Positions 2,961 to 63,667 of a DNA stretch of 64,000 nucleotides are shown here, piece after piece; positions within the stretch are counted from its first letter, which is position 1, and each line of letters begins with the position of its first letter. A model generated the notes under the pieces. The model was given only the letters and a program-made list of their open reading frames with translations. It did no database searches and was not told where the DNA came from. The stretch comes from a phage. The stretch is from the sequence record PV946933.1; one strand, given 5' to 3'. A program made the position numbers and the translations under genes.

Positions 2961-3013
2961 GTTTACAAGACTGTTCCTCTGTGGTACTATACAACTATCA
3001 ACTACGGAGGAAC
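2961..3013 (+). promoter_or_regulatory. early promoter with SD-pairing inverted repeat
   Basis: GTTTAC ... TGTGGTACTAT; GTTCCTC (2973-2979) complementary to GAGGAAC (3007-3013) covering the SD. Confidence 0.55.
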
Positions 3014-3018
3014 ACAAA

Positions 3019-3546
3019 ATGAACGCTAAAGATATTTTCAACTTGGTAAATTACAACGATGGTAAATTTAAATCTGAAGCACAAAGTAAGTTCTTTAATG
3101 ACATCTCAATCGGAGGTGAAATCACAGTTGATGGAGGACAAATTTACAAATCCCGCTGGAATTGGATCGTTATTATTGATGAGATCGGTATTGTAGAAAT
3201 TTACAAGAATACGAATAAAAATCGTACATTACACTGGTCTCGTGATACTAACGAACAGTACAAAAAGGATAAAGCATCTAAATTATCTCGTGTAACTCAA
3301 GAAGATATTGAGTTCATCAAGAAAGATATTTTAATGTATGATAATTTAATTGCTGAAGAGCAAGCTGTTATTGATAAATTTGATGAGATTAAAGCTTCTC
3401 GTGAAATTCCTGATTTTATGAAAGAATCAGTAAATGAACGATACACTCTCATTTCAGAGCGTATTGAAACTTACAAAAAGCAAAGAGCTGAACGCCAAAA
3501 TACTCTTCGGAAGTTTGAAGAACGGTTAAAGACGGTACTCGCATAA
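3019..3546 (+). CDS. hypothetical protein with C-terminal coiled coil
   Basis: 175-aa ORF behind early promoter and SD; charged heptad-like C-terminus. Confidence 0.5.
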   Translation: MNAKDIFNLVNYNDGKFKSEAQSKFFNDISIGGEITVDGGQIYKSRWNWIVIIDEIGIVEIYKNTNKNRTLHWSRDTNEQYKKDKASKLSRVTQEDIEFIKKDILMYDNLIAEEQAVIDKFDEIKASREIPDFMKESVNERYTLISERIETYKKQRAERQNTLRKFEERLKTVLA

Positions 3547-3601
3547 CCGCTTTATACCAAGGATGGTATAATAGTTCTAAGCCCTTTTAATTGAGATTAT
3601 T

Positions 3602-10055: not shown

Positions 10056-10096
10056 AAATAATAAATACCCTTATCTATTTAAGGTAAGGGTTTATT
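10056..10096 (+). promoter_or_regulatory. gene 49 late-promoter-like box plus SD-sequestering hairpin
   Basis: ATAAATA at 10061-10067; inverted repeat ACCCTTA/TAAGGGT (10067-10091) covers the SD before ATG 10097. Confidence 0.45.
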
Positions 10097-10570
10097 ATGT
10101 TATTGACTGGCAAATTATACAAAGAAGAAAAACAAAAATTTTATAATGCACAAAACGGTAAATGCTTAATTTGCCAACGAGAACTAAATCCTGATGTTCA
10201 AGCTAATCACCTTGACCATGACCATGAATTAAATGGACCGAAAGCTGGAAAGGTACGTGGGTTGCTTTGTAATCTCTGCAATGCTGCAGAAGGTCAAATG
10301 AAACATAAATTTAATCGTTCTGGTTTAAAGGGACAAGGTGTTGATTATCTTGAATGGTTAGAAAATTTACTTACTTATTTAAAATCCGATTACACCCAAA
10401 ATAATATTCACCCTAACTTTGTTGGAGATAAATCAAAGGAATTTTCTCGTTTGGGAAAAGAGGAAATGATGGCTGAGATGCTTCAAAGAGGATTTGAATA
10501 TAATGAATCTGACACCAAAACACAATTAATAGCTTCATTTAAGAAGCAGCTTAGAAAGAGTTTAAAATGA
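10097..10570 (+). CDS. 49: endonuclease VII (Holliday junction resolvase)
   Basis: 157 aa; sequence recognised as T4 gp49. Confidence 0.92.
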   Translation: MLLTGKLYKEEKQKFYNAQNGKCLICQRELNPDVQANHLDHDHELNGPKAGKVRGLLCNLCNAAEGQMKHKFNRSGLKGQGVDYLEWLENLLTYLKSDYTQNNIHPNFVGDKSKEFSRLGKEEMMAEMLQRGFEYNESDTKTQLIASFKKQLRKSLK

Positions 10571-15620: not shown

Positions 15621-15633
15621 CTGATATCCTCTA

Positions 15634-15669
15634 TGCTTTAAGATAGATCTTCAAATATTATGATATAAT
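15634..15669 (+). promoter_or_regulatory. candidate MotA-dependent middle promoter upstream of gene 55
   Basis: MotA-box-like TGCTTTA followed ~15 nt later by TATTAT/TATAAT. Confidence 0.35.
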
Positions 15670-15698: not shown

Positions 15699-16256
15699 AT
15701 GTCAGAAACTAAGCCTAAATATAATTACGTAAACAATAAAGAGCTTTTACAAGCTATTATTGATTGGAAAACAGAATTAGCAAATAATAAAGACCCAAAT
15801 AAAGTAGTTCGTCAGAATGATACTATCGGATTAGCCATTATGCTTATTGCAGAAGGCTTATCTAAACGTTTCAACTTTTCAGGATACACCCAGTCTTGGA
15901 AACAAGAAATGATTGCAGATGGTATAGAAGCTTCTATTAAGGGGCTTCATAATTTTGACGAAACGAAATATAAAAACCCACATGCATATATAACTCAAGC
16001 TTGTTTTAATGCATTCGTCCAACGTATTAAAAAAGAGCGTAAGGAAGTTGCAAAGAAATATAGTTACTTCGTTCACAATGTCTATGACAGTCGTGACGAC
16101 GATATGGTTGCGTTAGTAGATGAAACTTTTATTCAAGACATCTACGATAAAATGACGCATTACGAAGAATCAACCTATAGAACACCGGGGGCTGAAAAGA
16201 AAAGTGTTGTAGACGATTCTCCTAGTTTGGATTTTTTATATGAGGCTAACGATTAA
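15699..16256 (+). CDS. 55: late-transcription sigma factor gp55
   Basis: 185 aa from [13 protein letters not shown]...; recognised as T4 gp55; AAGAGG upstream. Confidence 0.92.
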
Positions 16257-21717: not shown

Positions 21718-21772
21718 TTTATAAGAGATTATGCTTTAATTTATTAGAGTATAATCTCTATGGAGGAAAAAC

Positions 21773-32616: not shown

Positions 32617-34044
32617 GTGGTAGAAATTATTCTTTCTCATCTCATATTTGATCAAGCTTATTTTTCAAAAGTTTGGCCATATATGGATTCAGAATATTTT
32701 GAAAGTGGTCCAGCTAAAAATACGTTCAAATTAATTAAATCTCATGTTAATGAGTACCATAGCGTTCCATCTATTAATGCGTTAAATGTTGCATTAGAAA
32801 ATAGTTCATTTACTGAAACAGAATATTCTGGTGTAAAAACACTTATTTCAAAACTGGCTGATTCTCCGGAAGACCACAGTTGGTTAGTAAAAGAAACGGA
32901 AAAATATGTTCAGCAAAGGGCGATGTTTAATGCTACGTCTAAAATAATTGAAATTCAAACTAATGCTGAACTTCCTCCGGAAAAACGAAATAAGAAAATG
33001 CCGGATGTTGGTGCTATTCCTGACATCATGCGCCAAGCATTATCAATTTCATTTGATAGTTACGTTGGTCATGATTGGATGGATGACTATGAAGCACGTT
33101 GGCTATCTTATATGAATAAAGCCCGTAAGGTTCCATTTAAACTCAAAATTCTAAATAAAATTACTAAAGGCGGAGCTGAGACTGGAACACTGAACGTTTT
33201 AATGGCTGGTGTTAACGTTGGTAAGTCATTAGGATTATGTTCATTAGCAGCAGATTATTTACAGCTCGGACATAATGTTCTTTACATTTCCATGGAAATG
33301 GCAGAAGAAGTCTGTGCTAAGCGTATTGATGCTAATATGCTTGATGTTTCTCTTGATGACATTGATGATGGACATATTTCTTACGCTGAATATAAAGGAA
33401 AAATGGAAAAATGGCGTGAGAAATCTACTCTCGGTCGTTTAATCGTTAAACAGTATCCTACTGGTGGAGCAGACGCTAATACATTTCGTTCTCTTTTGAA
33501 CGAATTGAAGCTCAAGAAGAATTTTGTTCCAACAATCATTATTGTCGACTATCTAGGTATTTGTAAATCTTGCCGCATCAGAGTTTACTCAGAAAATAGT
33601 TACACAACTGTTAAAGCTATCGCAGAGGAATTGCGTGCTCTGGCTGTTGAAACCGAAACTGTTCTTTGGACTGCAGCGCAGGTTGGTAAGCAAGCTTGGG
33701 ATTCTTCTGATGTTAACATGAGCGATATTGCAGAATCCGCCGGTCTTCCAGCAACAGCTGATTTTATGCTTGCGGTCATTGAAACCGAGGAGTTAGCAGC
33801 TGCTGAACAACAACTCATTAAGCAAATCAAATCACGATATGGTGATAAGAATAAATGGAATAAGTTTTTGATGGGTGTTCAAAAAGGAAATCAAAAATGG
33901 GTAGAAATTGAGCAAGATTCTACTCCAACTGAAGTGAACGAAGTAGCAGGTTCACAGCAGATTCAGGCTGAACAGAACCGCTATCAAAGAAATGAATCGG
34001 CTCGAGCTCAGTTAGATGCTTTGGCAAATGAATTAAAATTTTAG
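32617..34044 (+). CDS. 41: replicative DNA helicase gp41 (DnaB-like)
   Basis: 475 aa, GTG start after AAGGAG; Walker A GVNVGKS; recognised as T4 gp41. Confidence 0.95.
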   Translation: MVEIILSHLIFDQAYFSKVWPYMDSEYFESGPAKNTFKLIKSHVNEYHSVPSINALNVALENSSFTETEYSGVKTLISKLADSPEDHSWLVKETEKYVQQRAMFNATSKIIEIQTNAELPPEKRNKKMPDVGAIPDIMRQALSISFDSYVGHDWMDDYEARWLSYMNKARKVPFKLKILNKITKGGAETGTLNVLMAGVNVGKSLGLCSLAADYLQLGHNVLYISMEMAEEVCAKRIDANMLDVSLDDIDDGHISYAEYKGKMEKWREKSTLGRLIVKQYPTGGADANTFRSLLNELKLKKNFVPTIIIVDYLGICKSCRIRVYSENSYTTVKAIAEELRALAVETETVLWTAAQVGKQAWDSSDVNMSDIAESAGLPATADFMLAVIETEELAAAEQQLIKQIKSRYGDKNKWNKFLMGVQKGNQKWVEIEQDSTPTEVNEVAGSQQIQAEQNRYQRNESARAQLDALANELKF

Positions 34045-34081
34045 TTTACAAGCTGACAAGACTATGGTATAGTAGTCTTGT
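34044..34081 (+). promoter_or_regulatory. early promoter embedded in stem-loop (PeSL-like)
   Basis: GTTTAC (34044-34049), -10 TGGTATAGT; 9-bp inverted repeat ACAAGACTA/TAGTCTTGT brackets the -10. Confidence 0.55.
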
Positions 34082-34102
34082 TGGTTAAATGAGGAGATTT
34101 TT

Positions 34103-34508: not shown

Positions 34509-34531
34509 TTATTGATGCTAGTAAAATAGTA

Positions 34532-34574
34532 GTTTACAAGCTGATAGAGTTGTGTTATAGTAATTCTATCAGCT
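34532..34574 (+). promoter_or_regulatory. early promoter embedded in stem-loop (PeSL-like)
   Basis: GTTTAC, -10 TGTTATAGT; 10-bp inverted repeat AGCTGATAGA/TCTATCAGCT brackets the -10. Confidence 0.5.
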
Positions 34575-34593
34575 AATCGCGGAGAAAAGAAAA

Positions 34594-34848
34594 ATGATGC
34601 TAGTTAATAGAGAATATCAGTTTAAATCAGAAGAAGATTTGGAAAAATTCGCAAGTGGTTGTGAACTGAATAGACGCACAGCTAAAGTCATAGGATTAAA
34701 ACCCTTTACAGTTCTAGATTGTGAAGTTTCTAAATTCCGCAGAGGGTGTTCTATTAGCGGTCATGCTCTGGTTGATGGGAACACATTTTTCTTTGTTTTT
34801 AGCGTCAGAGAACTTTTATTGATTAACGAACTTGAGGAAATAAAATAG
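34594..34848 (+). CDS. hypothetical protein
   Basis: 84-aa ORF downstream of hairpin-embedded promoter. Confidence 0.45.
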   Translation: MMLVNREYQFKSEEDLEKFASGCELNRRTAKVIGLKPFTVLDCEVSKFRRGCSISGHALVDGNTFFFVFSVRELLLINELEEIK

Positions 34849-36995: not shown

Positions 36996-37014
36996 CGCAA
37001 ATTTTACAAAATTT

Positions 37015-37061
37015 GTTTACTTTCTCAGCTTGCTGTGGTATTATAAAATAAACTGCTGAGG
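37015..37061 (+). promoter_or_regulatory. early promoter with SD-pairing inverted repeat
   Basis: GTTTAC-N18-TGTGGTATTAT; TCTCAGC (37023-37029) complementary to GCTGAGG (37055-37061) at the SD. Confidence 0.55.
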
Positions 37062-37069
37062 ATAATATA

Positions 37070-37507
37070 ATGATTAATAAAATTGTACATGAAATGGCTT
37101 TAAACGGAGATTCATATAAAATATCTGCCGTAGTTGAAAATTTCATACTTAATAAAGTAAAAGAATATTTCACTGATTGTTCAGTTAGTTATCAAGAAAA
37201 AATGGTTTTAATCGACGATACTGAAAAATCAAATAATTTGTTTTGTTCGAATTTTACAACTAAGAAGCGTACTAGAAGATTTGATATTGTCATTTCTCGC
37301 AATGGTAAAAAGCATATAATTGAAATCAAACACCAAGTTGGTGGAGGTACAGCCATTGATTCGGTTGGAATATATCTGGAAGATAAAGATAAATTAAAAG
37401 AATACACAAAAACTGAAAATCCTGTGTCATTGATGATATTAGATTTTTTGCCATGCGGATATTATCCGCGTAATAAGTGGACAAAAAGAGAATCATTTAC
37501 TGATTGA
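37070..37507 (+). CDS. putative PD-(D/E)xK-fold nuclease-like protein
   Basis: 145 aa; helix with Glu (AVVENF) followed by RRFDIVISRNGKKHIIEIK (D-x13-E-x-K); own early promoter; directly upstream of dam. Confidence 0.5.
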   Translation: MINKIVHEMALNGDSYKISAVVENFILNKVKEYFTDCSVSYQEKMVLIDDTEKSNNLFCSNFTTKKRTRRFDIVISRNGKKHIIEIKHQVGGGTAIDSVGIYLEDKDKLKEYTKTENPVSLMILDFLPCGYYPRNKWTKRESFTD

Positions 37508-37624
37508 TAATCCAACCATCCAAGCAAGGTTTAATGAATATGCTAAATCACAAAACGTGTTAGTATTACTATCAAATACATATGATGAAGAATTATATAA
37601 TTCGTTTTTTGCTGCAATAAATGA

Positions 37625-41466: not shown

Positions 41467-41533
41467 TTCAAAAAGTTGTTTACTTTCCTTCCTAACAATG
41501 ATATGATAGCTTCTGAAGTATATGGAGGCTATC

Positions 41534-42157
41534 ATGATTATTAATCTTGCAGATGTTGAACAGTTATCTATAAAAGCTGAAAGTGTTGATTTTCAATATG
41601 ATATGTATAAAAAGGTCTGTGAAAAATTTACTGACTTTGAACAGTCAGTTCTTTGGCAATGTATGGAAGCCAAAAAGAATGAAGCTCTTCATCGGCAGTT
41701 GAATAAAATCGTTAAAAAGCATTTAACTGAATCACCTTATCAGTTATATCGTGGTATATCAAAATCGACAAAAGAACTCATTAAAGATTTACAAGTTGGA
41801 GAAGTGTTTTCAACGAACAGAGTAGATTCATTTACTACTAGTTTGCACACAGCATGCGGTTTTTCTTATGCTGAATATTTCACTGAAATAATATTTCGCT
41901 TAAAAACTGATAAAGCTTTTAATTACTCTGACCATATCAGCGATATTATACTTTCTTCTCCTAATACTGAGTTTAAGTATACATATGAAGATACTGATGG
42001 ATTAGATTCAGAACGTACTGATAACTTAATGATGATTGTGCGTGAACAAGAATGGATGATTCCAATTGGAAAGTATAAAATAACTTCTATTTCAAAAGAA
42101 AAATTACACGATTCATTTGGAACATTTAAAGTGTATGATATTGAGGTAGTTGAATGA
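41534..42157 (+). CDS. modB: ADP-ribosyltransferase ModB
   Basis: 207 aa from ATG after GGAGG; R-S-E ART motifs (YRG, STN/STS, EQEWMIP); paralog of next gene. Confidence 0.75.
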   Translation: MIINLADVEQLSIKAESVDFQYDMYKKVCEKFTDFEQSVLWQCMEAKKNEALHRQLNKIVKKHLTESPYQLYRGISKSTKELIKDLQVGEVFSTNRVDSFTTSLHTACGFSYAEYFTEIIFRLKTDKAFNYSDHISDIILSSPNTEFKYTYEDTDGLDSERTDNLMMIVREQEWMIPIGKYKITSISKEKLHDSFGTFKVYDIEVVE

Positions 42158-46678: not shown

Positions 46679-46708
46679 GTTTACTTCCTCGGTTAGTTGT
46701 GGTATTAT
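46679..46708 (+). promoter_or_regulatory. early promoter
   Basis: GTTTAC-N18-TGTGGTATTAT. Confidence 0.55.
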
Positions 46709-46735
46709 AACACCATAGCTACTGAGGATAATAAA

Positions 46736-47236
46736 ATGAAAATTTATCGTGTTGAATCATCGTTTAGTATTCTTGATTATGAAGATGCTATAACAATACG
46801 TCGAAATCTTTGTGTTCAAATAACACCGTACAGGAGTATAATAGATTCATGGAGCGAAGAGTGGCTATTACACGTAGGTTATGACAGACCTAATTTTATG
46901 CATCATAGCGATAATAATAAAAGAATTCCTTTACCACACGAAGATAAACTATTAGTTAAAAACGCTAATATAGTAATTAATACTAAGTTCAAGAAAGATT
47001 ATGTTGGAGTAGAATATCATATTCCAGGATGGTTTATAGCTCTTTATCATTTTGCTTTCGCTAGTGAATATGATATGATGAGATGGTTCACACGAGAAGA
47101 GCGGGAAGAATTATCTTCTAAAGGATTTTATCTCGCTGTATACGAAGTTCCTGAAGATGAAGTTATCATTGGCGGGCACCAAGTAATGTTCCGCAAATCG
47201 CATGCTGAACTCATAGATTTTATTGAAATGAGATAA
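46736..47236 (+). CDS. motB: MotB-like protein
   Basis: 166 aa from ATG after GAGGA; T4 motB position; identity not verified. Confidence 0.45.
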   Translation: MKIYRVESSFSILDYEDAITIRRNLCVQITPYRSIIDSWSEEWLLHVGYDRPNFMHHSDNNKRIPLPHEDKLLVKNANIVINTKFKKDYVGVEYHIPGWFIALYHFAFASEYDMMRWFTREEREELSSKGFYLAVYEVPEDEVIIGGHQVMFRKSHAELIDFIEMR

Positions 47237-47783: not shown

Positions 47784-47820
47784 GTTTACAAACTCTTGGG
47801 ACCAGAGTATAATGGTCCCT
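47784..47820 (+). promoter_or_regulatory. early promoter embedded in stem-loop (PeSL-like)
   Basis: GTTTAC, -10 GAGTATAAT; inverted repeat GGGACCA/TGGTCCC (47798-47804, 47814-47820) brackets the -10. Confidence 0.45.
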
Positions 47821-47856
47821 GGAGTATAAAATCTTTTTAACAAGTGAGAGATAACT

Positions 47857-48383: not shown

Positions 48384-48426
48384 ATCAGTAGTTGATTATG
48401 GTACTATATCAATATCAACTACTGAT
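48384..48426 (+). promoter_or_regulatory. -10 element inside 13-bp perfect inverted repeat
   Basis: ATCAGTAGTTGAT (48384-48396) and ATCAACTACTGAT (48414-48426) flank TATGGTACTAT; no canonical GTTTAC -35. Confidence 0.45.
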
Positions 48427-56417: not shown

Positions 56418-56624
56418 ATGTTTACTACAGCTGAATTAAAACGAGCAAAAGCTAAGAAAGGGAAAGGAAAATATAAAGCTGAATTAGTTAAAGAACTTCA
56501 GTTTGCTGAGGCTGAATTGAATTCAATGATTATTCAAAATGCTCCAGAAACTGAAATTGCTCTTAAACGTATTGCGAATAAGTGTCTTCGTGATGCAATT
56601 GTCGATCTTTTAGCGGATTATTGA
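56418..56624 (+). CDS. hypothetical protein (ndd-upstream cluster)
   Basis: 68 aa from ATG after GGAG in conserved leader. Confidence 0.4.
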   Translation: MFTTAELKRAKAKKGKGKYKAELVKELQFAEAELNSMIIQNAPETEIALKRIANKCLRDAIVDLLADY

Positions 56625-56629
56625 GTAAA

Positions 56630-56893
56630 ATGAAATTTAAATTTTATTACGCTAAACATAAAATAACTGATGAGTTTGTGTCAGTTGAATATTCTAGCGA
56701 TGATGAAGGAATGATTTATACTCGCTTGGGACTATCGCACTGGGAGTCTGACACGCCTTATTTTTCAACTCCCGAAGAAATTACACGCTTAGTTAATGGT
56801 CATATGAATGACCACTGGAATGTAATTCTTTCAGATAGTCTTAAAGCGGCTATTAATAGTAATGAAATGAAAATCGCTGAGATTGAACTATGA
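56630..56893 (+). CDS. hypothetical protein
   Basis: 87 aa from ATG. Confidence 0.4.
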   Translation: MKFKFYYAKHKITDEFVSVEYSSDDEGMIYTRLGLSHWESDTPYFSTPEEITRLVNGHMNDHWNVILSDSLKAAINSNEMKIAEIEL

Positions 56894-57078: not shown

Positions 57079-57131
57079 GTTTACAAGACTGTTCCTCTGT
57101 GGTATTATTACTCTATCAACTACGGAGGAAC
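57079..57131 (+). promoter_or_regulatory. early promoter with SD-pairing inverted repeat
   Basis: near-copy of 2961-3013: GTTTACAAGACTGTTCCTCTGTGGTATTAT ... CGGAGGAAC. Confidence 0.55.
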
Positions 57132-57136
57132 AGAAA

Positions 57137-57250
57137 ATGAAAAAGATTGTTAAAGCTATATGGAATGTAGTTATAATACTAGTAGTTTTGAGTATATTCC
57201 CAATCGTTTTAATGATTGATGTATTAAACGCTTACTTTGGATTTATGTGA
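57137..57250 (+). CDS. tiny hydrophobic peptide
   Basis: 37 aa from ATG after GGAGG in promoter leader. Confidence 0.3.
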   Translation: MKKIVKAIWNVVIILVVLSIFPIVLMIDVLNAYFGFM

Positions 57251-62012: not shown

Positions 62013-62214
62013 TTCAAAATCCGATTATTTTAATTCTCTCAATGATAAAGATAAAAATCTAATACGGCATTTTATCGTTGAGATGGGATATACTGATACA
62101 CGTGATTTAAGAGAACATATATTTGAATGTGGTGTAGCTAAAAAGTTTTCATTCACATGCAAATGTTTAAGAGAGGTAATTCAGCATTATGAACAATTTA
62201 GTCGCAAAACATAA
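61996..62214 (+). CDS. hypothetical protein (TTG start, uncertain)
   Basis: 72-aa ORF with only a TTG start, overlapping previous ORF. Confidence 0.3.
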   Translation: MAREINSKSDYFNSLNDKDKNLIRHFIVEMGYTDTRDLREHIFECGVAKKFSFTCKCLREVIQHYEQFSRKT

Positions 62215-63010: not shown

Positions 63011-63667
63011 TTATTTAGCCCTTCCTAATATTCTGGCCGCCTGAGAACATATTGATTCAAGGCGGTCATTACTTATATGATCATTTCTATACCAGTACAT
63101 GGTTATTGTTCCAGCATAGATATTATCCAAATTAAAATATGGACAACTGTACATGTAGTTTATTTCGGGAGTAGGCTTTTTAGTTGGTAAAAAAGCAAAT
63201 TTTGAGTTGGAATAATAATGACGTCCATTTAAATGAACTGTATATTCATCCATAGTTTTATCAACAGGATATCCTCCAAGTGATTTTTCGCTTATTGTTG
63301 AAGGTAATTTTCCTTCATATGCTATAATATCAACAAAATAGTTTAAGTTTTTAGGGCGGAAAGAATACACCGCACTAAAGTCTGCCTCAGATGATATGTG
63401 AACTATCTGGAGTTGTTCCAGGGCGACAGATTCAAAGCGTGCATTTCTTTCCTTTTCAATAATTTCACTGTATGTTTCATACTTTGATTGCTTATAGTAC
63501 TCAAAGAAACTATCTCCCCTATACCAAACAATCGCCATCATAAATAAAAGAATTACGACAGCTACTCGGGAAGCAAGAACCTTCCCGGTAGCGTTATCTT
63601 TGAACAAGCGATCTAGAACACCCAACAGAATATCAGAGGGCGAAAATGATATTCTAGGTGCTGCCAT
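63011..63667 (-). CDS. t: holin T
   Basis: 218 aa on - strand; recognised as T4 holin; AAAGGAGGG and late-promoter-like box upstream on - strand. Confidence 0.92.
   Translation of the reverse strand: MAAPRISFSPSDILLGVLDRLFKDNATGKVLASRVAVVILLFMMAIVWYRGDSFFEYYKQSKYETYSEIIEKERNARFESVALEQLQIVHISSEADFSAVYSFRPKNLNYFVDIIAYEGKLPSTISEKSLGGYPVDKTMDEYTVHLNGRHYYSNSKFAFLPTKKPTPEINYMYSCPYFNLDNIYAGTITMYWYRNDHISNDRLESICSQAARILGRAK

Follow-up and report, generated by a model that had tools for sequence, protein, structure and literature searches.

Here we report that four T4-type early promoters in a 64,000-nt stretch of phage DNA (sequence record PV946933.1; this whole stretch is hereafter the window) carry segments complementary to the Shine-Dalgarno (SD) region of the gene that they drive. 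The four genes are nrdC.8, ndd.4, modB, and motB.2. In RNA that enters from upstream, the promoter segment and the SD region are predicted to pair in a long hairpin that buries the ribosome-binding site (RBS), and transcripts started at the gene's own promoter would lack the upstream arm of that hairpin. These SD-masking hairpins probably act as translational insulators, which confine the genes behind them to transcripts of their own immediate-early promoters.

The window belongs to a Tequatrovirus, a close T4 relative with 97-98% identity to many coliphages. The plus strand is the direction of prereplicative transcription, with the gene order nrdC.x, 49, nrdD, 55, 43, 41, 61, modB, motB, rIIA, rIIB, ndd, and motA. 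A preliminary description of this DNA pointed to inverted repeats at positions 2973-3013, 57091-57131, and 37023-37061, and to a hairpin in the style of gene 49 at 10056-10096, and suggested that the SD of the downstream gene is hidden in read-through transcripts and left free in promoter-proximal ones, by the mechanism known for T4 genes 49 and e. Our results partly support this interpretation. Its core idea holds computationally and comparatively, with the reservations that two of its three examples are copies of one duplicated cassette and that the shared principle operates here at early rather than late promoters, with the opposite timing.

Results

The nrdC.8 promoter is complementary to its own SD region

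The site at 2973-3013 precedes nrdC.8, and the upstream gene nrdC.9 ends at 2958. As described earlier, GTTCCTC (2973-2979) lies between the -35 and -10 elements of a promoter, and GAGGAAC (3007-3013) overlaps the SD sequence GGAGG. The pairing is real, but the 7 bp originally given are only half of it: RNAfold predicts a helix of 14 contiguous pairs, two of them G.U, closed by a 15-nt loop that contains the -10 hexamer and the expected start site (Table 1). The start site is placed at about 2997 by promoter geometry. The annotation of phage SA20RB gives the orthologous site as a T4-type early promoter, and the sequence upstream of nrdC.8 in T4 is the same as that in the window. Since the 5' arm extends no further than the first base of the -10 element (2985), the promoter-proximal transcript necessarily lacks this arm.

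Folding of the two RNAs, which had been suggested as a check, agrees with the expected difference. The read-through RNA (2961-3050) folds at -24.2 kcal/mol (z score of -4.70, with 0 of 200 shuffles as good), whereas the proximal RNA (2997-3050) is unstructured (-3.6 kcal/mol, z -0.04). Opening of the RBS, taken in such read-through and proximal comparisons as the segment from ATG-14 to ATG+2, requires 15.9 kcal/mol in the read-through RNA versus 2.5 kcal/mol in the proximal RNA, an added cost of 13.4 kcal/mol. An inverted repeat of 7 nt alone could readily occur by chance, unlike the full helices at nrdC.8 and ndd.4, which represent two of the only five uninterrupted stems of at least 14 bp on the plus strand of the window.

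Other SD-masking promoters in the window

The second site lies upstream of ndd.4, which was mapped to its T4 counterpart. Its helix comprises 15 pairs (57089-57103 with 57119-57133, by RNAfold) and includes the 7-mers at 57091-57097 and 57125-57131; the segment 57079-57168 folds at -23.2 kcal/mol (z -3.47), and opening of the RBS takes 15.4 kcal/mol in read-through RNA versus 1.5 kcal/mol in proximal RNA (added cost, 13.9 kcal/mol). The arrangement is indeed the same as at nrdC.8, but it does not constitute a separate example. From the -35 element to the ATG, the two cassettes are identical at 54 of 59 positions and their arms are identical; five differences fall in the loop and a sixth lies just 3' of the stem (3015/57133), where it creates an extra pair in the ndd.4 copy. 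Because they are copies of one paralogous cassette, the nrdC.8 and ndd.4 sites are not independent observations.

Two cases that were absent from the preliminary description, motB.2 and modB, are equally strong or stronger. At motB.2, a bipartite 17-bp stem encloses a loop (46704-46711) that holds most of the -10 element TATTAT (46703-46708), whose first base is paired in the stem; the 3' arm contains the SD GAGGA, and the ATG is at 46736. The read-through RNA folds at -29.0 kcal/mol (z -5.84), with an added RBS opening cost of 10.1 kcal/mol. At modB, it is the -10 element TATGAT (41502-41507) and the first transcribed bases that are covered by the 5' arm, which ends at the predicted start site, and the 3' arm covers both the SD GGAGG (41524-41528) and the AUG (41534-41536). 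The added opening cost is 11.1 kcal/mol and the read-through fold has a z score of -1.9.

The third site of the preliminary description precedes a 145-aa open reading frame (ORF) that has no T4 counterpart. The repeats TCTCAGC (37023-37029) and GCTGAGG (37055-37061) are present as described, but their helix of 8 bp, with one G.U pair and a 25-nt interior, adds only 5.7 kcal/mol to RBS opening and is not more stable than expected by chance (z -0.03, with 98 of 200 shuffles folding as well). A search of IMG/VR for diverse relatives of this gene, in which the hairpin could be compared, gave one near-identical locus, and in the phage collection 148 of 156 records are 95-99% identical, with four differences that all fall outside the arms, which is not significant. 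The encoded protein matches Pfam restriction-endonuclease families, in each case below threshold. The hairpin at the fourth site is real, and it is that of gene 49 itself (endonuclease VII), identical to the published T4 case; it was therefore used as a positive control (-17.9 kcal/mol, z -2.4). The earlier observation is thus confirmed at 2973 and 57091, as one cassette in two copies, weak at 37023, and trivially true for gene 49.

SD masking compared with all promoters and gene starts

Promoters were scanned for as GTTTAC, a spacer of 16-18 nt, and TAnnnT, followed by an SD and an ATG, which gave 20 T4-type early promoters on the plus strand of the window. Masking of the SD by at least 10 kcal/mol was found at 4 of the 20 (nrdC.8, ndd.4, modB, and motB.2), and the proximal RNAs of these cassettes have opening energies of 1.5-5.0 kcal/mol. 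In chimeras, where the untranscribed part of each promoter was placed on every other leader, this level was reached by 1.6% of the window combinations. When the window was pooled with 50 kb each of RB69 and JS98, 10 of 50 own promoter and leader pairs reached 10 kcal/mol, compared with 1.4% of 808 chimeras (binomial P value of about 1e-9, which is only a rough guide because the 50 promoters include orthologues and paralogous cassettes).

Ranking of the RBS opening energies of 117 plus-strand gene starts places nrdC.8 at the top (19.3 kcal/mol), followed by gene 55 (17.4), ndd.4 (17.4), gene 49 (15.9), motB.2 (15.2), and modB (14.0), against a median of 4.8 kcal/mol. The published cases used as controls fall in the same range (gene 49, 15.9; soc, 9.3; T4 gene e, 15.7 kcal/mol). 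Pure chance was rejected for the sites at 2973 and 57091 on the grounds of this ranking, the chimeras, the shuffles, and the stem count, but not for the site at 37023. No Pfam match was obtained for nrdC.8, motB.2, modB, or ndd.4, and Rfam 15 gave no matches in the whole window.

Table 1. Promoter-associated hairpins in the window and in T4 (window coordinates unless an accession is given).
Feature	Position	Strand	Details
nrdC.8 early promoter	2961..2990	+	-35 GTTTAC 2961-2966, 18-nt spacer, -10 TACTAT 2985-2990; pattern scan
nrdC.8 hairpin, 5' arm	2972..2985	+	TGTTCCTCTGTGGT; promoter spacer and extended -10; RNAfold, stem enumeration
nrdC.8 hairpin, 3' arm	3001..3014	+	ACTACGGAGGAACA; holds SD GGAGG 3006-3010; start codon 3019-3021
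ndd.4 cassette	57079..57139	+	-35 57079-57084, -10 57103-57108, ATG 57137
motB.2 early promoter hairpin	46679..46738	+	17-bp bipartite; 5' arm 46686-46693 and 46695-46703; 3' arm 46712-46728
modB early promoter hairpin	41478..41542	+	5' arm 41497-41514; 3' arm 41524-41542
Promoter of 145-aa nuclease-like ORF	37015..37072	+	Helix 37022-37029/37055-37062, ATG 37070; in insertion relative to T4
Gene 49 (endonuclease VII) hairpin	10058..10098	+	Embedded late-promoter-like box; published T4 case, positive control
dmd, second-class hairpin	34044-34082		
goF-like gene, second-class hairpin	34539-34574		34532 gene
motB, second-class hairpin	47784-47830		
cef, second-class hairpin	48384-48426		
T4 regB early promoter, SD-masking spacer	ATG 62740 (NC_000866)		Arms UUUUCCUCUUGACUG/CAGUUAAGAGGAGAA
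T4 denV early promoter, SD-masking spacer	ATG 65355 (NC_000866)		Added opening cost 9.1 kcal/mol

Conservation and covariation of the arms

Comparison among relatives provides the strongest line of evidence. Judged from the sequences, pairing is kept by compensatory change at motB.2, modB, regB, and nrdC.8. The motB.2 arms are UCCUCGGU/ACUGAGGA in the T4 type, UUCUCCUCUGGUU/AACCAGAGGAGAA in RB69, and UUCUCCUCAUG/CAUGAGGAGAA in JS98, all of them paired, with added RBS opening costs of 10.1, 18.3, and 12.6 kcal/mol in the three lineages. Three pairs adjoining the CCUC/GAGG core differ on both sides between lineages; among T4-type sequences the arms have undergone only G.U to A-U and G-C to G.U changes, and among those of the JS98 type the arms are invariant and the loop is variable. 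The modB promoters have three different lineage solutions, each of which pairs the -10 element and the first transcribed bases with the SD and/or the AUG, and the regB promoters have fully paired arms in all three lineages (CUCUUGACUG/CAGUUAAGAG, CUCUAGUUG/CAACUAGAG, and CCUGUAAGU/ACUUACAGG). The nrdC.8 arms read GUUCCUCYGUGGU/ACUACGGAGGAAC in T4-type phages, and JS98-like phages have another spacer, UCUCCAGUAG, which is paired with another SD region, CUACUGGAGG.

A scan of positions 54001-76000 of the T4 genome (NC_000866) identified the same design at regB, where the added opening cost is 14.1 kcal/mol and the read-through opening energy 18.8 kcal/mol, as well as at denV (Table 1) and e.8 (added cost, 8.8 kcal/mol). 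Cassettes with the leader TATCAACTAC in IMG/VR comprise 23 types, about ten of which have spacers matching their own SD-proximal bases (permutation p of 5e-5). Two of these shared-leader cassettes, TCTCCTGTAG/CTACAGGAGA and TCTCCAGTAG/CTACTGGAGA, differ by one swap of A-U to U-A, and TTCCTCCAAG/CTTGGAGGAA is a further matched cassette. In two alignments, 89.3% and 94.4% of cells are paired, compared with 29-57% after the partner is slid by 1-3 columns; shuffles reached the observed value in 0 of 500 and 2 of 500 cases, and each alignment contains two pairs with changes on both sides. Substitutions within types are G.U to A-U, G-C to G.U, and U.G to C-G. The covariation sample consists of few independent lineages, and the search for ModB relatives in IMG/VR found only close ones.

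Promoter and leader units recur within the genomes. A near-identical -10 element and leader, GGTACTATACAACTATCAACT(AC), is found at six promoters of the window (1522, 2961, 27940, 56354, 57079, and 60212), and JS98-like phages have their own common leader, TACTATAGACCTATCAAC; each genome thus has its own repeat families of promoter-leader units.

The pairing probably acts at the RNA level and on read-through transcripts

The helices use G.U pairs, which on the other strand are A.C mismatches or are weak in DNA, and among the 50 promoters the plus-strand RNA folds better than the minus-strand RNA in 19 of 24 strong cases (Wilcoxon p of 0.02). A DNA palindrome, operator, or cruciform was rejected on these two grounds and because the arms differ at every promoter; no operator sequence common to the promoters was found. 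Only read-through transcripts contain both arms, and any RNA-level function must therefore act on them.

Read-through into nrdC.8 is unavoidable, since nrdC.9 ends 2 nt before the -35 element, lacks its own early-type promoter, and has no U-tract terminator behind it. No plus-strand terminators were found between the next upstream early promoter and each of the four window cassettes, and no terminator or stem-loop was found within 120 nt upstream of 2961, 57079, 41478, or 46679. The middle promoters Pdda.1 and Pdex.2 are located upstream of motB.2 (PMC2988021). The possibility that the hairpins are themselves intrinsic terminators was rejected, as their 3' arms are followed by CAAAAUG, GAAAAUG, and UAAUAAAAUG, with no U-tract; a loose terminator scan flagged only the modB stem, with the tail AUUAUUAAUC.

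A second class of promoter-spanning hairpins

Hairpins that span the -10 element without reaching the SD occur in the window at dmd, a goF-like gene, motB, and cef (Table 1). That of the goF-like gene is 15 bp long (AGCTGATAGAGTTGT/GTAATTCTATCAGCT) and that of cef is a perfect 13 bp (ATCAGTAGTTGAT/ATCAACTACTGAT). The same design with other sequences is found at sp, 55.2, motB, and cef in RB69/JS98 and at ipI, ipII, and mobD.2 in T4. Both arms of these hairpins are missing from the proximal transcript. We treat the SD-masking and SD-free hairpins as two classes because their forms differ and are gene-specific across lineages.

Related structures are present at three middle promoters. At P55 (15621-15705), with a MotA box ATGCTTTAA at 15633-15641, a -10 element TATAAT at 15664-15669, and the gene 55 ATG at 15699, the promoter is part of a three-tier structure (-25.9 kcal/mol, z -4.2), and opening of the gene 55 RBS takes 17.4 kcal/mol, which ranks joint second among the gene starts of the window. 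Ahead of the MotA box, the segment CUGAUAUCCUCU (15621-15632) is paired with both the SD (AGAGG) and the AUG of this late sigma factor gene, so the same principle is seen at a middle promoter. At P45.2 (21724-21759), a 16-bp stem joins the MotA box region AGAGATTATGCTTTAA to the -10 region TTAGAGTATAATCTCT, leaving 3 nt between its end and the SD GGAGG. At the nrdC.7 middle promoter (3553-3570), TATACCA and TGGTATA pair across the spacer and -10 element.

Discussion

Proposed mechanism

According to our model, the insulator is part of the sigma-70 early-promoter cassette: the DNA between the -35 and -10 elements is reverse-complementary to the driven gene's SD and short leader, and in the modB variant the -10 element together with the first transcribed bases takes the part of the complementary arm. 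RNA from upstream early promoters, and later from middle promoters, would carry both arms and fold into a hairpin of 12-17 bp once the SD is transcribed, with the 30S subunit excluded and the gene silent. RNA from the gene's own promoter would start where the 5' arm ends or within the loop, so that its leader of about 20 nt includes the 3' arm alone, and would be freely translated. The gene would thus be expressed only while its own immediate-early promoter fires, during the first few minutes, and the proximal RNA that can be translated would be lost as RegB cuts its exposed SD. Folding, geometry, and covariation all support this mechanism well, and beyond the nrdC.8/ndd.4 cassette it extends to modB, motB.2, regB, and denV. 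From the computed complementarity, thermodynamics, promoter geometry, absence of upstream terminators, and evolutionary maintenance with compensatory change, we infer that the hairpins form in vivo and block translation, and that temporal or quantitative restriction of expression is the selected benefit.

Published data on early T4 genes fit this model. The SDs of motB.2 and modB, and to a moderate degree that of nrdC.8, are RegB cleavage sites in vivo, and structure inhibits RegB (PMC1702504). The modB RNA was RegB-resistant in vitro, 'presumably' through structure, yet it is cut in vivo (PMC1702504), a puzzle that would be explained if the in vivo substrate is the proximal transcript without the 5' arm. 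RegB production 'must be tightly regulated' (PMC3014915), proteomics places ModB among the early proteins (PMC9697503), and ModA is described as highly toxic.

Several observations weigh against an insulator function or limit it. About as many promoters carry equally strong hairpins that span the -10 element without hiding the SD, so masking of the SD cannot be the sole role of promoter inverted repeats; promoter-spanning hairpins evidently have another function, and SD masking could be secondary to it. Promoters with SD masking are not significantly depleted in upstream terminators (2 of 12 versus 10 of 38 in the pooled set), a trend in the window alone (0 of 4 versus 7 of 16 other promoters) being lost in the pooled test. 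The nrdC.8 promoter of RB69-like phages has AGGUCUAU/AUAGACCU around the -10 element, a pairing that stops short of the SD, and the 55.6 promoter masks the SD in RB69 and JS98 and not in the window. Part of the covariation reflects replacement of whole cassettes by recombination rather than stepwise change, and the same cassette fronts different genes. Finally, inactivation of these SDs by RegB would seem to make structural silencing of read-through RNA partly redundant.

Alternative explanations

RegB also suggests a different function, in which the hairpin shields the internal SD motif GGAG/GGAU from this nuclease and from the subsequent RNase E/G decay, so that read-through transcripts survive and the loss of translation is a side effect. 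The SD-masked genes do have further genes downstream on the same strand, and the regB promoter itself carries a hairpin, with regB mRNA being a RegB target. We nevertheless consider this unlikely as the main role: several masked SDs are poor RegB sites, T4 denV has GGAG and is RegB-resistant in vivo for a reason attributed to its 3' context, the modB helices also cover the AUG, which RegB does not need, and the known hairpins of e, 49, soc, and I-TevI act via translation. Shielding from RegB is compatible with translational insulation and possibly additive to it. A similarly low probability is assigned to a generic RNA role of promoter-spanning hairpins, as a processing or stability element, protective stem, or folding insulator, in which the SD is reached only because leaders are about 20 nt long. 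This alternative still carries weight: hairpins of equal strength across the -10 element without SD contact in the window, RB69, JS98, and T4 speak for such a role, as do the middle promoters P45.2 and nrdC.7. However, the SD-masking arms match SD-proximal bases specifically and track their changes; motB.2, modB, and regB keep SD/AUG masking in three lineages, in which motB, cef, and sp keep the non-masking type. This points to a gene-specific constraint and to two designs, one with an 8-23-nt loop and reaching the SD, the other with a tight loop formed by the -10 hexamer.

It is highly improbable that the repeats have no selected function and arose as a by-product of cassette duplication or recombination of the promoter-early stem-loop (PeSL) type, of quasipalindrome template switching, or of a DNA palindrome. 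The cassettes at 2961 and 57079 are copies of one another, identical cassettes precede different genes in different phages, and three insertions relative to T4 begin at promoter cassettes, in agreement with documented PeSL shuffling (PMC4122927). Against this, many unrelated arm sequences pair with their own SD; G.U pairs and the plus-strand asymmetry oppose DNA-level pairing or templated perfecting; stems are invariant where loops vary, with no common operator sequence; and own promoter and leader pairs outperform swapped ones at about 1e-9, with promoters not all independent. Translational coupling, by which ribosomes ending the upstream gene would melt the hairpin and translation of the masked gene would follow that of its neighbour proportionally, is given an equally low probability. 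Upstream stop codons are close by, from 13 nt (nrdC.9/nrdC.8 and dexA/motB.2) to 30 nt (modB) before the first paired base. A terminating ribosome covers about 9-10 nt past the stop codon, however, and the stems begin just outside this footprint and extend 14-17 bp further, whereas in the classic cases the stop lies within or against the helix. Insulation of the masked genes from read-through translation is the explanation that we favour.

Comparison with known systems

The T4 genes e, soc, 49, and I-TevI have an RBS-sequestering hairpin with an internal late promoter (PMC3014915); the system is also listed for I-TevII/III, segB, and Aeh1 mobE, and according to a 2010 review the genes known to be under the control of RBS-sequestering hairpins are all late genes (PMC2988022). 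As in e, soc, 49, and I-TevI, the SD/AUG of the genes described here lies in a helix (predicted here, 14-17 bp) in upstream-started RNA, the internal promoter drops the 5' arm, and the opening energies are alike (14-19 kcal/mol here versus 15.9 for gene 49 and 15.7 for gene e). In contrast to the late cases, the internal promoter is a sigma-70 early promoter, GTTTAC-N17/18-TAnnnT, rather than the gp55 late promoter TATAAATA, the promoter spacer itself provides the 5' arm, and the timing is predicted to be inverted, with expression limited to the first minutes rather than delayed. Since the known T4 cases use late promoters, we regard the early hairpins as the same principle in another promoter class with opposite timing. 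No description of SD-masking hairpins embedded in early promoters was found in the searchable literature, and an older mention is possible.

In the fold-back inhibition of IS10 and IS50, the RBS is sequestered in externally initiated RNA by a segment located upstream, and transcription from the sigma-70 promoter of the element starts inside, which shields the transposase from read-through activation. The geometry at the phage promoters is the same, with the promoter between the arms, and the cassette would likewise be insulated from its transcriptional context. Unlike the insertion sequences, the genes concerned (nrdC.8, ndd.4, modB, and motB.2) include no transposase, and the cassettes are spread and exchanged by homologous recombination, not transposition.

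The PeSL cassettes of T4-type phages (Arbiol 2010, PMC2839356; Comeau 2014, PMC4122927) are similar in being repeats of a conserved early promoter, SD, and start codon in hyperplastic regions, linked to the gain, loss, and exchange of genes, and PeSL-mediated modular shuffling is documented for loci including ndd.4/.5 (PMC4122927). Their stem-loop, however, is a terminator just upstream of the -35 element, whereas the hairpin described here spans the -10 element, pairs the spacer with the SD, and has no U-tract. Identity with the PeSL stem-loop was rejected because the PeSL stem is located upstream of the -35 element and none is present at the SD-masking promoters of the window. The window has three insertions relative to T4 (34511-34847, 37002-37546, and 56421-56860) with one small gene each, namely, an 84-aa goF-like gene, the 145-aa gene with sub-threshold restriction-endonuclease matches, and a 68-aa gene. 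Each insertion begins at or just after an early-promoter cassette, which fits PeSL-type shuffling.

Finally, RegB acts in trans, as a nuclease that requires its site to be unstructured, whereas the hairpin would act in cis by keeping both the ribosome and RegB off read-through RNA; both mechanisms would shorten the expression window of early genes.

Implications

As a more speculative extension, which we hold with somewhat less than even confidence, T-even phages may possess recombinationally mobile early-promoter cassettes whose spacer is an anti-leader and anti-SD sequence, such that any gene placed behind one would become an autonomous, strictly immediate-early unit regardless of the transcription that passes through it. 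Together with RegB cleavage of the exposed SD on proximal transcripts, the cassettes would form a two-key system that restricts potentially harmful early enzymes, including RegB, ModB, DenV, and nuclease-like accessory genes, to a pulse in the first minutes. Such a system would help to explain the abrupt fall in early protein synthesis that takes place despite read-through and middle transcripts.

If the insulator model is right, about a fifth of T-even early promoters would double as a very strong sigma-70 promoter in DNA and a silencing arm in RNA. It would give a cis reason why synthesis of RegB, ModB, MotB.2, DenV, and NrdC.8 is limited to the first minutes although their genes are crossed by later transcripts, and it would bear on how accessory genes are shuffled between phages without loss of regulation. 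RNA-seq abundance would be expected to over-predict the translation of SD-masked genes, and the design could be reused as an insulated promoter-RBS part.

Additional observations

On the minus strand, from about 36966 downward, the intergenic region of gene 61 and dam contains a convincing RBS and start codon (AAAGGAGGACGACGCATGGTACAAAAATTAATGGC...), which lie just upstream of the promoter at 37015. The corresponding ORF may be related to the opposite-strand RB69 ORF029w, a small gene that is unannotated in T4. In the arn/asiA region, two more starts of small ORFs are strongly buried (62037-62083 and 63020-63080): a 14-bp stem, TCTCAATGATAAAG/TTTTATCGTTGAGA, ends at a start codon with an opening energy of 11.3 kcal/mol, and a GC-rich stem, GCCGCCTGA...CAAGGCGGT, precedes a 37-aa ORF with an opening energy of 13.7 kcal/mol.

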